A DNA stretch of 7,606 nt from a virus. Taxonomy: Duplodnaviria > Heunggongvirae > Uroviricota > Caudoviricetes. Made by a program: the position numbers and the translations under genes. Under the pieces are notes generated by a model. The model did not search any database. It was not told the origin of the DNA and saw only the letters and a list, made by a program, of their open reading frames with translations. Of this stretch, positions 1 through 7,606 are shown one piece after another. How positions within the stretch are numbered: the first letter of the stretch is position 1; each line of letters opens with the position of its first letter. The DNA lies in IMG/VR virus record IMGVR_UViG_2706794681_000003; one strand, 5' to 3'.

Positions 1-119
1 GTCCGGGCATGAAGATACCCCGCGCTCAGCGTGGACTGATGTTCAGACGCCCATGCAGGCGCACCGGATACGGCCAGACAAATGGCTGCGGACAAAATGG
101 CGGCACAAACTTTACGCAT
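1..119 (-). CDS. lom: Lom-like outer-membrane/secreted protein, 5' partial (first 39 codons; continues beyond window start)
   Basis: Minus-strand ATG at 119..117, preceded by GAGAGG about 5 nt upstream. Translation MRKVCAAILSAAICLAVSGAPAWASEHQSTLSAGYLHAR is open to the window edge and has a typical signal peptide (basic n-region, hydrophobic core, A-W-A cleavage motif). It sits immediately downstream of J, where lambda carries lom. Too short for the supplied ORF track. Confidence 0.6.
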   Translation of the reverse strand, partial: MRKVCAAILSAAICLAVSGAPAWASEHQSTLSAGYLHAR

Positions 120-124
120 AATTA

Positions 125-130
125 CCTCTC
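125..130 (-). promoter_or_regulatory. Ribosome-binding site for the lom-like gene
   Basis: Minus-strand GAGAGG ending about 5 nt before the ATG at 119. Confidence 0.5.
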
Positions 131-143
131 GCTTTTCTGCAAT

Positions 144-167
144 AAAAAAGGCGTCATTCCTGACGCC
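144..167 (-). terminator. Rho-independent terminator downstream of J
   Basis: On the minus strand: GGCGTCA-GGAA-TGACGCC (7-bp perfect GC-rich stem, 4-nt loop, 150..167) followed directly by TTTTTT (144..149). Lies 23 nt after the J stop codon and before the lom RBS. Confidence 0.65.
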
Positions 168-189
168 ATTTATTGGGGTTATAAATATT

Positions 190-3100
190 TCAACGAATAC
201 TGATGCCGGAAGCCGCTTTTTTGGTCACAATCACCGTACAGTCGGTGATATTGCCTGCCCCCTGATTGCCTTTCTGGAAAATCTTAAACTCCAGAGTGAC
301 GCTACCACCACCACTAGGCATATCAATAACTGCACTGTAACTACCGGGAATGGCACCTTTAGTTTCTCTGGATGCGATTAATACGCCGTTTTTGCGAACT
401 TCAAAACCATAACCCGTGTATCGCGTGCCTCCTGGGTTATTTCCGCTCCCCGGATCGTCATACGCTATACCGTTAAAAATAATGGGCGGAATAATAATCT
501 GGCGGTCAAAGTTATGATCATCGCTTATGGTGACTGTAACCGTCCCGTTTGGTGTTTCCGTGTTACCCCACGTACCAGCCTGTTTCGGAAATGATTTGGA
601 TACAGCTTTAACGAAGTCACCTCTGACCTGAGTCGCCTCCAGCATGCCCTTAATCGTACAGTTTTCATTTACCGTGACATTGTTGAGCGTCCCGGCGTTC
701 GCATTCACACTGCCACTGATATCCGCATTTTTAGCGGTCAGCTTTCCGTCCGGAGTCAGGGAAAATGCCGATGGATTTCCACCGCTGGTAATGGTGGGGG
801 CCGTCAGGCGTTTCAGGAACACGTCGTTCATGAATATCTGATCGCCCTGACCAACAAACATCGGTTTTGTGTTGCCATTCGCAGGATTAACCATCGCAAT
901 CCTGTCCGCCGCCAGCAGCACCTGACTCTGCATGCCGTCAGGGGTGTTCTCAATACCGGCACCAATACCCGCGATATAAAGGCGTCCGTCCTGCATCTGC
1001 TGCAGCTTCACAGCCCACATGCTGTTCAGGTTATTATTTGTATCAACCTGAACCTTCTGTATCTGCTGAATTGCCGCACTCTGGTCTTCCAGTTTCTTAT
1101 TGACGGTCTGCGTGATTTCATTGCTGACATCCGTAATGGACGTCCTGATTTCAGCCAGGTCAGGCGCAAGCTGACCGTTATCAATCTGCGTCCACAGCTC
1201 CTGAGCCAGATGGGTTTTCCCTATCTCGCCTTTGAAAAAATCCAGATAACCGGATGCATCATCACTCGGCTGACCAACAGCCTCCACGAATGCCGATTTG
1301 CCAACGGTGTTCACACTGCGGATATAAAAGTAATAATCATGGCCCGGTTTGATATTGATACTGGCGGCTATCCAGTACAGCGCCGTGCCAAGATAGCGTG
1401 CTGTGGTTTCAACCTGCCTGATATCCGCAATCCGCTTTTCCGAGAACCAGAACTCAAACTGTACCGTCGGATCATAAACCGCAAGATGCGGCGTGGCGGT
1501 TATCTGAAAATAGCCCGGCGTCAGCTCAATCCGCGACAGCGCTGCCGGTGCGGCAATCCGGAACGATACCGACGCCGGATCGCCCTGCTGCCCCCACGCA
1601 TTTACTGCCCGGACTGTCAGCCTGTAGTTCCCCAGCGCCAGTTGTGTGAAGCGGTAAGTGGTTTCCGTCGTCCGGGCCGTGCTGACCNNNNNNNNNNNNN
1701 NNNNNNNNNNNNNNNNNNNNNTCAGGTGCTGCACCGCTGGCGGCGTGACACCATTCACCGTGCCGCTCTGGTCGCCGTCAAAGTGCGCCCCGTTATCCAC
1801 GATGGCTTCTTTTTCCGGCACATGCTGCACGGCGGTGATGGCATACGTGCCGTCGTCGTTCTCACGGATACTCACGCAGCGGAACAGGCGCTGGCGCAGC
1901 GTCGGCAGCTTCAGCCCCCATACGCTGTATTCAGCAACACCGTCAGGAACACGGCTCACTTTTACCTTCACGCCGTCGGTGACGGACTGGACCTCCACGC
2001 TGACCGGATTACCCTCACCGTCAACCAGGCTTATCAGCGTGGTGCCGGAGGATGGCAGCGTGATTTCACGGTCGAGCGTCAGCGTCCGGGTCTGGCTGTT
2101 CACCGCCAGCACGCGCCCGCCGGTGCGGATACCGGCATAGTCATCATCGCAGATTTCAATGACATCGCCCGGTACATGACGAAGCCCTTCAGCACCCACG
2201 CTGAAATCCACGGTCTGCGTCTCCAGCAGTTCCGTTTTAATCAGCCACAGCCCGGCGCGGTGTGCCTGCCCCCGGCTGGTACAGCCAAAGGCATCCATCT
2301 TCGTGACGTTACGACCGTAACGGACAATGGCCTGCGTATCCTCCACAAGCTCTGTCGCCGTCTCCCAGCCGTTATCCGGGTCAATCCAGTTCACCTCAAC
2401 GGCATTATGGCGGTCTTTCAGGGCGCTGAAACTGTAGCGGAACGGCGCGCCATCATCCGGCATCACCACATTACTGCGGTTATAGGCCCACACCTTATCC
2501 GACTGTCGGTCCTGCACGAACGTCAGCGTCTGCCCGTTCCATACCGGCATACAGCGCATCGCCGAGCAGAAATCACTGAGCACATCCCACGCCTTGCGCT
2601 GTGTGGTCAGCCAGGCATTACAGGTGATGCGCGGCTCCGTGCTGCCAAAGCCGTCCGGCACCGACTGGTCACAGTACTGGCCGATGACATACAGCGCCCA
2701 TTTATCCACATCTGCCGCACCAAGACGTTTCCCCATGCCATAGCGCGGATGGGTCAGCATATCCCACAGACACCAGGCCATGTTGTTGCTGTATGCCGGT
2801 TTTAACGTTCCGTCCCAGATACCGCTGTATTGCCGCGTCTGCGGATTATAGTTCGACGGCACCTGCAGAATGCGCCCGCGAAGATGATAATTACGGCTCA
2901 CCTGCTGGCTGCCGAACTGTTCCGAGTCCACCTGCACACCGACCAGTGCCGTGTTCGGGTAGCACTGTTTCACATCGATGATTTCGGTGTATGACGACCA
3001 GAGCGTTTTGTTCTGCAGCTGGTCTGTGGTGCTGTCCGGCGTCATTCTGCGCATCCGGATATTAAACGGGCGCGGCGGCAGGTTATCCACCACCACTGAG

Positions 3101-3594
3101 GCCAGATACTGCGAGGTGGTTTTACCCTTAATGGTGATGTCTTTTTCCGTCACCCAGCCACCGTTACGCTGTATCTGAACCAGCAGGCGAACTTCAGACG
3201 GATTCCTGTCTCCCTTTGAGGTGGTTTCCACCAGTGCCTGTACACCGAAGGTAAAACGCAGTCGGTCAATGTTTGCCGACGTGATGGTCCGGGTGATCGG
3301 CGTGTCATATTTCACTTCCGTACCCAGCACCGTCTCGGAGCCGGAGGATTCAAACCCCTCCGGCGGTGACTGCTCCTGCTCACCTGCCCGGAACACCACC
3401 GTGACGCCGGAGATGTTGGTATTCCCCTCACTGTCCAGCACCGGCGTACTGTTCAGCAGCACGCTTTTTAATCCATCCACCGGACCTTCAACCGGCCCTT
3501 CGCTGATGGCATCGATCACACTCAGCAGCTGCGTGGACTTCAGGTTGTCCTTCGCTTCGCGCGGGGTATGCCCCTTACTGCTGCCTTTACCCAT
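190..3594 (-). CDS. J: Central tail fibre / host specificity protein J (tail tip), 1134 aa
   Basis: Full ORF, ATG at 3594 with GGAG about 8 nt upstream. The N-terminal and central portion ([24 protein letters not shown]...) is near-identical to lambda gpJ as I recall it. The C-terminal ~360 aa are divergent and lower in GC. Contains a 34-nt N block (1688..1721) that keeps the frame. Confidence 0.95.
1688..1721. other. Masked/unresolved sequence (34 N) inside J
   Basis: Run of n characters; the J reading frame is preserved across it (12 X codons). Confidence 0.99.
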
Positions 3595-4227: not shown

Positions 4228-4882
4228 ACGAAGATCGATGCGGCGGCCNATACCTCTCTCGTTTGCTCAGTTGTTCAGGAATATGGTGCAGCAGCTCGCC
4301 GTCACCACAGTAAATGGCGGCATGATTCGGCACCGATGAACCAAAACAGCACAGCAGCACATCGCCCGGCTGCGCCGCTGACAACGGCACCTGATACAGC
4401 CCTGTGGCCTCCAGATTATCCAGATAGAGATTCTGACCGTGACGCCACCAGTCATCCTCACGATAAAAGTCCGGCATCTCAATCCCCGCCAGATGGTAAG
4501 CGTCCCGGAACAGCGTGTAACAGTCCGTCACCCCGTGCTCAAAGCGCCGCCCGGTAAGATGTGGCACACAGCGGAACTTGTGAATCGCCCCCCGGCAGAC
4601 CAGCCACCACGGCAAATCACTCTGCACCTGCAGCCGCCGGTCGGCCTCACTCAGCCAGGGCAGACCACCGGGGTGGCTGTGGACCAGTGCCACAATCTCA
4701 CCCTGCATCTCTGCCTGCAGCCAGTCTTCCGGCGACATACGGAAATACGCCTCCGGCTCACCGGAGATATTCACGCAGGGGAAATATCTTTCCCCCTCCG
4801 GCGTTCTTACCACGAAGCCGCACGACTCCGCTGGAGCACATCGCCGGGCGTGCGCCAGAATCGCTGATTCTGTCTCTGTCAT
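4211..4882 (-). CDS. K: Tail tip assembly protein K (JAMM/MPN + NlpC/P60 two-domain protein)
   Basis: ORF MTETESAILAHARRCAPAESCGFVV... with a JAMM motif H-S-H-x7-S-x2-D (residues 68-81, nt 4640..4681) and a downstream Cys (residue 121, nt 4520..4522) followed by His residues, as in NlpC/P60 enzymes. ATG is 5 nt after the L stop. The 3' end overlaps the I start region out of frame. A single masked base (4249) lies in the last 13 codons, so the exact C-terminus is uncertain. Confidence 0.85.
   Translation of the reverse strand: MTETESAILAHARRCAPAESCGFVVRTPEGERYFPCVNISGEPEAYFRMSPEDWLQAEMQGEIVALVHSHPGGLPWLSEADRRLQVQSDLPWWLVCRGAIHKFRCVPHLTGRRFEHGVTDCYTLFRDAYHLAGIEMPDFYREDDWWRHGQNLYLDNLEATGLYQVPLSAAQPGDVLLCCFGSSVPNHAAIYCGDGELLHHIPEQLSKRERYXPPHRSSCENRG
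4249..4249. other. Single masked base (n) in the K/I overlap
   Basis: Single n character; it affects one K codon and a possible I start codon. Confidence 0.99.
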
Positions 4883-5586: not shown

Positions 5587-5915
5587 CAGTTCACCACCTG
5601 TTCAAACTCTGCGCTGAACTCAACACGCAGCATACTGACCCGCGACGACCATTTTGCGCAGGTCACCTTTATCTGCCGCCACTCATAAGGCGGCGTCCAC
5701 AGAAAGGCTTTCCAGCCCCCGTGCTCTTCCAGAAACGACTCCAGTACCATGGCCTCCTCACGGGGGACAGAAAGCGTCACGCTGTACGTTTTCAGGTTGG
5801 CATTCAGCCCGGCAGGCGCTCGCTGGGAATAGCCATCACCAAAGCGCACCTTTCTTACAGAAGGGGCCGAAGCCACATCCATACCGGGTTTCACTTTCCA
5901 GCGGAAGGTTTTCAT
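5586..5915 (-). CDS. M: Tail tip protein M, 109 aa
   Basis: Full ORF MKTFRWKVKPGMDVASAPSVRKVRFGDGYSQRAPAGL... Its ATG overlaps the H stop (ATGA at 5915..5912). Same length as lambda gpM as recalled. Confidence 0.95.
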   Translation of the reverse strand: MKTFRWKVKPGMDVASAPSVRKVRFGDGYSQRAPAGLNANLKTYSVTLSVPREEAMVLESFLEEHGGWKAFLWTPPYEWRQIKVTCAKWSSRVSMLRVEFSAEFEQVVN

Positions 5916-7606
5916 CGTCCACCTCCGGAGAACAGGCCACCATCACGCATCTGTGTCTGAATTTCATCACGGGCACCCTTGCGGGCCATGTCATACACGG
6001 CCTTCATCATCTGTGGACCTGGCAGACCATTCGTACCGTCGTTCTGAATNNNNNNNNNNNNNNNNNNNNNNNNNNNNNNNNNNNNNNNNNNNNNNNNNNN
6101 NNNNNNNNNNNNNNNNNNNNNNNNNNNNNNNNNNNNNNNNNNNNNNNNNNNNNNNNNNNNNNNNNNNNNNNNNNNNNNNNNNNNNNNNNNNNNNNNNNNN
6201 NNNNNNNNNNNNNNNNNNNNNNNNNNNNNNNNNNNNNNNNNNNNNNNNNNNNNNNNNNNNNNNNNNNNNNNNNNNNNNNNNNNNNNNNNNNNNNNNNNNG
6301 CCGCCACCAACAGCCCCGCCAATGGCGCTGCCGATACTCCCGACAATCCCCACCATTGCCTGCTTAAGCAGAATTTCTGTCATCATGGACAGCACGGAAC
6401 GGGTGAAGCTGCGCCAGTTCTGTTCACTGCCGGTCAGCATCGCCGCCATATTCTGTGCAATACCATCAAAGGTCTGCGTGGCAGCACTTTTAACCTGCGA
6501 CATACTGTCCGTGGCGCTCTCTTCCCACTCACTCCAGCCGGACTTCAGGCCTGCCATCCAGCTCCCGCGAAGCTGGTCTTCAGCCGCCCAGGTCTTTTTC
6601 TGCTCTGACATGACGTTATTCAGCGCCAGAGGATTATCGCCATACTGTTCCTTCAGGCGCTGTTCCGTGGCTTCCCGCGCTGCCTGCCGGTCAGTCAGCC
6701 CCCGGTTTTTCGCATCAATGGCTGCCCGTTTTGCCCGTTGCTGCTGTGCGAATTTATCCGCCTGCTGCGCCAGCGCATTCAGGTGCTCCTGATACGTAAC
6801 CTTGTCACCAAGTGCAGCCAGCTGGCGTTTGTACTCCAGCGTCTCGTCTTTATGCGCCAGCAGGGATTTCTCCTGTGCGGACAGCTGGCGACGTTGTGCC
6901 GCCTCCTCCAGTACCGCGAACTGACTTTCTGCCTTCCACAAATCCCGGCGCTGCTGGCTGATTTTCTCATTCGCTCCGGCATGCTTCTCCAGCGTCCGGA
7001 GTTCTGCCTGAAGCGTCAGCAGGGCCGCATGAGCACTGTCTTCCTGACGATCGCCCGCATACACCTTCACGCCGGACTGTTTCGGCTTTTTCAGCGTCGC
7101 TTCATAATCCTTTTTCGCCGCCGCCATCAGCGTGTTGTAATCTGCCTGCAGGATTTTTCCGTCTTTCAGTGCCTTGTTCAGTTCTTCCTGACGGGCGGTA
7201 TATTTCTCCAGCGGCGTCTGCAGCCGTTCGTAAGCCTTCTGCGCCTCTTCGGTATATTTCAGCCGTGACGCTTCGGTATCGCTCTGCTGCTGCGCATTTT
7301 TGTCCTGTTGACGCTGTTGATCTACCCTCTTTTGGGCTGCATCCCGCTCCAGGCGTTTTTTTTCACGATCATCCCAGTAACGCGCCCGTGCTTCATCGTT
7401 AACGAAATAATCATCCTTGCGCAGATTCCAGATGTCGTCTGCTTTCTTAAACGCAGCCTCTGCCTTAATCAGCATCTCCTGCGCGGTATCAGGACGACCA
7501 ATATCCAGCACCGCATCCCACATGGATTTGAATGCACGTGCAGTCCTGTCTGCCCAGGTCTCCAGCGTGCCCATGTTCTCTTTCAGGCGGCGGGTCTGGT
7601 CATCAA
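5912..7606 (-). CDS. H: Tail tape measure protein H, 3' portion (5' end beyond window; interrupted by masked block)
   Basis: The minus-strand frame is open to the window end (…DDQTRRLKENMGTLETWADRTARAFKSMWDAVLDIGRPDTAQEMLIKAEAA…). It contains a long charged, Q/K/E/R-rich predicted coiled-coil region, then the hydrophobic Gly-rich MVGIVGSIGSAIGGAVGGG, then the N block, then IQNDGTNGLPGPQMMKAVYDMARKGARDEIQTQMRDGGLFSGGGR and a stop overlapping the M start. The two flanks of the N block are in different frames (ORFs 5991..7574 and 5912..6346). Confidence 0.9.
6050..6299. other. Masked/unresolved sequence (250 N) inside H
   Basis: Run of n characters. The H frame upstream and downstream of the block would need a span of 250±1 mod 3 to join, so the block length is probably not the true length. 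Confidence 0.99.

Follow-up and report, generated by a model that had tools for sequence, protein, structure and literature searches.

The stretch of DNA analysed here, hereafter the window (7,606 nucleotides), very probably contains the standard lambdoid J-lom junction of an Escherichia/Shigella prophage, in which a terminator belonging to the phage backbone is followed by an optional lom cassette and is read through in lytic growth under the control of Q. We document the identity of the gene, the structure and covariation of the terminator, the boundaries of the cassette and the absence of a recognisable promoter. The junction itself is already known. The J-lom arrangement is a textbook feature of phage lambda, the terminator is annotated in public records, and nothing in the window departs from published lambdoid phage biology or from existing annotation.

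The window is the entire 7606-bp draft contig CWTW01000182.1 of GCA_001252435.1, reversed. Its genes are all encoded by the minus strand and follow the order of the lambda tail genes (H, M, L, K, I, J). The assembly breaks off within lom at one end and within the tape-measure gene H at the other, as is typical of repeated prophage DNA in short-read drafts. Since the window is the complete contig, lom is not extendable from it, and the phage, E. coli and IMG/VR loci yielded no longer sequence identical to it (best match, 98.5%). The gene content of the contig consists of tail genes, and the antitermination system of the phage is not readable from it. Runs of N are found in J (34, at 1688..1721), in the K/I overlap (a single one, at 4249) and in H (250, at 6050..6299). 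Read across its gap, J has 1134 codons, a length that is unreliable because the closest relative (locus L002) carries 127 nucleotides opposite the 34 N, i.e. 93 more and in frame, with which J would be 1165 residues long. The apparent frameshift in H and the long alternative-frame ORFs at that place are artefacts of the 250-N gap, and the mechanical ORFs 5991..7574 and 5912..6346, both on the minus strand, were discarded with several others as products of translation through N. An antisense ORF of 531 codons inside J (1210..2805, plus strand), which spans the gap at 1688..1721 and is annotated in no relative, is most likely spurious. The features of the junction are the following:

190..3594, minus strand: J, the tail-tip or host-specificity gene (ORF list; the matching records all annotate J or host specificity protein)
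190..192, minus strand: TGA stop codon of J (sequence and ORF end)
176..185, minus strand: conserved spacer TTTATAACCC between the J stop and the hairpin (junction comparison)
150..167, minus strand: terminator-type hairpin with a 7-bp stem, GGCGUCA/UGACGCC, and a GGAA tetraloop (scan, fold, covariation, GenBank annotation)
141..149, minus strand: U-tract TTTTTTATT, which at the same time bounds the lom presence/absence cassette on the left (sequence; lom-less junction in phage Tritos)
125..130, minus strand: Shine-Dalgarno sequence GAGAGG of lom, 5 nt before the ATG (sequence)
1..119, minus strand: 5' end of lom, 39 codons and 2 bases, cut by the contig end (translation, Pfam, PHROG)
48..119, minus strand: predicted Sec signal peptide, residues 1-24 (MRKVCAAILSAAICLAVSGAPAWA), with cleavage predicted after A-W-A (hydropathy and the -3/-1 Ala rule)

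A preliminary description of this DNA had placed the J stop at 190..192, a stem-loop with six T at 144..167, the motif GAGAGG and an ATG at 119, and all of these are present on the minus strand with exact coordinates. It had further described the ORF opened by the ATG as lom-like, as containing a signal peptide and as leaving the window, which is borne out for the visible fragment. The ORF starts with the ATG at 119..117 and runs off the window at base 1, so that 39 residues are visible, MRKVCAAILSAAICLAVSGAPAWASEHQSTLSAGYLHAR. Inspection and hydropathy reveal the n-, h- and c-regions of a signal peptide, namely a positively charged MRK, a hydrophobic core spanning residues 4-17 and A-W-A before Ser25. 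The 39-residue fragment matches the Pfam family Ail_Lom (PF06316) over profile positions 1-38 with 66 bits, for a cut-off of 23 (E = 4.9e-18), as well as PHROG 108, 'Lom outer membrane protein' (E = 4e-14). It is identical at 38 of its 39 positions to a 199-aa 'Ail/Lom family outer membrane beta-barrel protein' of E. coli LD93-1. The one difference is the last visible residue, Arg in place of Ser, and Arg is a known allele of other Lom variants. The position of the ORF after J is that of lom in lambda. Taken together, these matches identify it as an Ail/Lom-family gene at the level of its sequence.

The full-length relative matches Ail_Lom with 407.7 bits over positions 1-199 of 199 and is approximately 45% identical to lambda Lom. 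Among solved structures, 'Outer membrane protein lom' (9wso) matches it best; the structures of OmpX and Ail come next, at E = 1e-17 to 1e-18. In the 2026 copy of the PDB, entry 9wso contains this protein as a lambda-type chain of 206 aa; our literature search found no paper describing the structure. The NCBIfam models for Rck and OmpX match below their equivalog cut-offs (115 versus 258 bits and 99 versus 176 bits, respectively), and the protein is therefore classified as Lom proper rather than as an orthologue of Rck or OmpX. Ail of Yersinia, OmpX of E. coli and Rck/PagC of Salmonella are homologous eight-stranded barrels, but their genes are chromosomal or plasmid-borne, not carried by phages, and lie outside a tail operon. 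Full-length relatives have the complete barrel, with an aromatic residue at the C-terminus (...GVGYKF), while the window stops 39 codons into the gene. The product of lom is predicted to be secreted and to form, like other members of the Ail/Lom/OmpX family, an outer-membrane beta-barrel with eight strands.

As for the role of such proteins, lom is non-essential and dispensable for plaque formation (PMC10695390). The mention of Lom in PMC3594210, which cites Vica Pacheco et al. 1997, links it to adhesion to epithelial cells. When over-expressed, Lom strongly protects against lambda-vir and not against T7, and it has been suggested to limit non-productive adsorption late in infection (PMC12366544). 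No model matching Lom was found in the PADLOC library of defence systems.

The hairpin after J, GGCGTCA-GGAA-TGACGCC, starts 22 bases past the stop codon and is followed by TTTTTT at 149..144 and then by ATT. Five of the seven pairs of its stem are G-C, and UUUUUUAUU lies immediately 3' of it. It folds with -12.6 kcal/mol (z = -4.2 relative to dinucleotide shuffles), and 1 of 200 shuffles folds as well. No other intergenic sense-strand site in the 7.6-kb window has both a G+C-rich stem and an unbroken T6. Plain terminator-like patterns are not above chance (2 versus 1.2 expected, in positions 1..1200), and the significance of the hairpin therefore comes from its position, its energy and its conservation with covariation, not from the pattern count.

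For this comparison, 117 lom-linked junctions were gathered from IMG/VR by an exact pattern taken from the U-tract/Shine-Dalgarno region, and they comprise 17 distinct variants. The stem occurs in three main versions among them, GGCGCCA/TGGCGCC, GGCACCA/TGGTGCC and GGCGTCA/TGACGCC. Over the 17 variants, 97.5% of the cells are paired, compared with 24-56% in slid controls, and the covariation score was reached by none of 500 shuffles; compensatory changes affect two of the seven pairs, counts behind which there are few independent events given that the junction sequences are closely related. This pattern fits a structure that would have been kept as such, and not merely a kept sequence. In GenBank, the homologous hairpin of phages 434, mEp460 and Ayreon is labelled a (rho-independent) terminator, presumably by prediction. 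Fold, covariation and these three annotations agree with the earlier view of the strong stem-loop as a terminator, and we consider the hairpin, as predicted, a bona fide terminator-type element. It also scores on the plus strand as a weaker terminator, with the tail ATTTATTGGG, and an upstream A-rich run can pair with the U-tract, so that the element may act in both directions. No Rfam family matches at gathering thresholds, and two sub-threshold matches to sRNAs (21 and 18 bits, for cut-offs of 45 and 70) were set aside as terminator look-alikes.

Upstream of the hairpin, the ATAACCC part of the spacer is invariant in all 17 distinct junction variants (loci L007-L130). The full TTTATAACCC is present in nearly all lom-containing variants and in 11 of the 12 commonest lom-less variants, across different J C-termini, and it is absent from lambda itself. 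It may be a patch of homology at a module boundary that serves in recombination.

The closest counterparts of the window are found in 434, mEp460, Ayreon, Evi, Stx-converting phages and E. coli prophages (e.g. WP_001233090.1), with 93-98.5% DNA identity over the J 3' end, the terminator and the lom 5' end. The layout of terminator, Shine-Dalgarno sequence and ATG is identical in this group, and a single base differs just 5' of the stem (T instead of G, window 168). Lambda is more distant. Its Lom (NP_040601.1, encoded between J and stf) belongs to the same Pfam family, occupies the same place after J and is preceded by the same GAGAGG, which is identical in all lom-containing relatives as well. 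A terminator-like hairpin with a U-run also lies between the J stop and the Shine-Dalgarno sequence in lambda, with a second terminator after lom, as in the relatives. However, the lambda hairpin has a CGUCCG/CGGGCG stem, a GGAA loop, a folding energy of -9.7 kcal/mol and a shorter U-run, and the signal-peptide sequence and the J C-terminus differ, in addition to the modest protein identity given above.

Whether the terminator belongs to lom or to the phage backbone can be seen from phages that have no lom. In phage Tritos, J is followed by the same hairpin and T-run and then directly by the ribosome-binding site and start codon of stf. A pattern drawn across this lom-less junction retrieved 86 viral contigs, of which 76 had enough flanking sequence for analysis. 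All 76 have the same hairpin family followed by an ORF starting MAVQISGVLKDG (stf), and Lom was not found in them by tblastn within 900 nt. The same J-end hairpin and stf start are thus present with lom at 117 junctions and without it at 76, a presence/absence pattern of the moron type between identical flanks, which supports the initial suggestion that lom is cargo. Comparison of the junctions places the lom cassette, made up of leader, Shine-Dalgarno sequence, lom and a second hairpin, between two T-runs, for a length of approximately 0.7 kb. The second terminator-like hairpin (CAGCCCGCCGG...GGCGGGCTTTTTT) was found between lom and stf in all eight lom-containing relatives in which this junction was read, lambda included, and is annotated in GenBank for 434, mEp460 and Ayreon. 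Because the first hairpin is kept with or without lom, the J-distal terminator is to be considered a backbone element and not part of lom. The J-lom-stf order is that of the relatives and of lambda; in the window its J side is confirmed, and its downstream side lies off the contig.

On these comparisons lom is best described as an optional cassette, moron-like in its presence or absence. Like morons (Juhala et al. 2000; PMC3594210), it lies between backbone genes with identical flanks whether it is there or not, and in the relatives it has its own terminator after the gene, is non-essential for plaques (PMC10695390) and is reportedly expressed from the prophage (PMC3594210). Unlike morons, it has no recognised promoter of its own, and its base composition is that of its neighbours; the G+C content of lom (0.55) equals that of J (0.56), and composition therefore gives no mark of foreign origin.

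The junction is widespread and mosaic. Of 5426 complete E. coli genomes, 4533 have a match under J or Ail/Lom annotations, as do 182 phage records, and most of the matching genomes carry several copies (median 2 per genome). Mosaic breakpoints are concentrated in the U-tract and at the 3' extremity of J (window ~228 and ~207). In many phages the match to the window is confined to the final 15-36 nt of J and what follows, with a shared terminator and lom and a different receptor-binding end of J, while Tritos and ev207 match it only up to the T-run. The J C-terminal sequences ahead of the same lom cassette are of at least five types, not counting that of lambda, and the main Lom alleles reassort among several of these types (IMG/VR loci L011-L130). 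A coupling of Lom alleles to the J receptor-binding domain, as in an allele-specific self-exclusion, was rejected at this resolution, as the alleles mix across J types. In one EHEC prophage (L009; LC567820.1, PPompW_14744, positions 1607..3119), what is left of lom at this place encodes 108 aa, and the type III effector gene espO comes next, on the opposite strand. This points to the region after J as a hot spot for cargo.

In the transcription model that we favour, J ends and is followed by the conserved intrinsic terminator, and a strong ribosome-binding site and the start of lom come 10 bases past the U-tract. By analogy with lambda, Q-modified RNA polymerase coming from the late promoter would ignore both terminators in lytic growth, and lom would then share a transcript with J and stf, with its own Shine-Dalgarno sequence serving for translation. 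In the repressed prophage, again as in lambda biology, the terminator would stop non-antiterminated polymerase straying from the tail genes, and lom expression would come from leakage through the terminator or from a weak promoter. Read-through from J is most likely the main route of lom transcription. The same terminator stands ahead of the virion gene stf, and stf lies behind two terminators in the lom-containing relatives; late transcription must therefore cross them. The 2013 work of Liu and colleagues is reportedly a ribosome-profiling study of lambda. In lambda, Q antitermination is required over the whole 27-gene late transcript (PMC10695390), and Lom expression rises sharply late in infection, according to the statement in PMC12366544 that cites Liu et al. 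2013. The preliminary description had reasoned that, with a terminator after J, lom is not simply read through and so probably has its own promoter. This reasoning is not supported, considering that the same terminator precedes stf, that Q antiterminates late transcription in lambda and that no promoter-like site was found.

It is possible, if somewhat unlikely, that lom is its own transcription unit, driven in the lysogen by a promoter in the J 3' end or overlapping the terminator, with the terminator insulating it from the late operon. Such a unit is in line with reports of lambda lom expression in lysogens (PMC7067206, PMC1151598) and with the classical definition of morons by their own promoter and terminator (PMC3594210); production of Lom from the prophage is also described in PMC12366544. 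In phage Phi24B, lom is reported to be constitutive and uncoupled from induction (PMC3342100, PMC4651098), which speaks for a separate promoter, at any rate in this phage with its short tail and different organisation. The lambda lom promoter has been described as little known, and one microarray study left lom undetected in a lambda lysogen (PMC2147009); no mapped lom promoter was found in our literature search.

Several observations in the window and its relatives speak against this own unit. On the sense strand of the 600 nt upstream of lom, a consensus scan and a crude PWM with shuffles detected no sigma-70-like site above chance, the best PWM score being 9.8 for a shuffle-maximum median of 9.6. 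The preliminary description had seen no convincing -35/-10 in the short interval, and the scans agree with it on this point; its proposal that the promoter may lie inside the J 3' end finds no support in them. The two hits that overlap the intergenic region are not credible. From TTTATT-17-AATTAT, transcription would begin within the coding sequence, and in ATGGCG-17-TTTATT the -11 A is missing and the -35 is poor. TTTATAACCC offers a -10 look-alike (TATAAC) that lacks the critical final T and whose transcripts would hit the hairpin. The 10 nt that separate the U-tract from the Shine-Dalgarno sequence leave no room for a promoter downstream of the terminator, and the transcript of any promoter further upstream would run into it. 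Moreover, no promoter-like or non-coding-type block common to the at least five J C-terminal types was found ahead of lom; the DNA near the J stop is conserved because the protein end, ...KK..GISI[RS], is conserved. The presence of the terminator before stf where lom is absent also argues against such a unit. Nevertheless, an own unit concerns the prophage state only and is compatible with late read-through, and a separate weak, non-consensus or activator-dependent promoter for lom expression in the prophage is possible. A more elaborate variant, in which the J-distal terminator sets lom expression in the prophage as an attenuator of a weak or activator-dependent promoter in the J 3' end and both U-tracts are recombination points for gain and loss of lom, appears improbable to us.

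It is quite improbable that the hairpin is mainly a stabiliser or processing site of the J mRNA 3' end, or a homology patch for recombination of tail modules. Hairpin, TTTATAACCC and T-run are indeed common to phages with different J C-termini, with or without lom, and the mosaic breakpoints fall nearby and in the T-run itself. In addition, Q-modified polymerase would ignore the hairpin in the sole phase of strong J transcription. However, all features of an intrinsic terminator are present, from the 7-bp G+C stem and the tetraloop to the U6 immediately 3', and pairing is conserved rather than sequence, while a homology patch needs no pairing. Termination and these other roles are, besides, not mutually exclusive. 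Lastly, that the copy of lom in the window is a truncated or decayed, non-functional remnant is very improbable, since, although its ORF is visible for 39 codons only before the contig ends and although 4 of 105 related loci have clearly shortened Lom ORFs (103, 108, 143 and 185 aa) and one Stx-phage relative has a 108-aa remnant beside an effector gene, Lom is intact at 199 aa in 100 of the 105 loci and has 200 aa in one, the Shine-Dalgarno sequence, start codon and signal peptide are intact, the visible part has no defect, and the contig break is of the kind expected for repeated prophage DNA.

Because late transcription in lambdoid phages is antiterminated, the presence of a terminator within their late operon carries no information on read-through. 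The one distal to J is part of the phage backbone and is retained irrespective of lom. The question of a lom promoter active in the prophage state has gained some relevance since over-expression of Lom was reported in 2025 to block infection by lambda-vir (PMC12366544). Should the hairpin act as an attenuator, the conditions or factors that modulate termination at this site would control the levels of Lom in lysogens.
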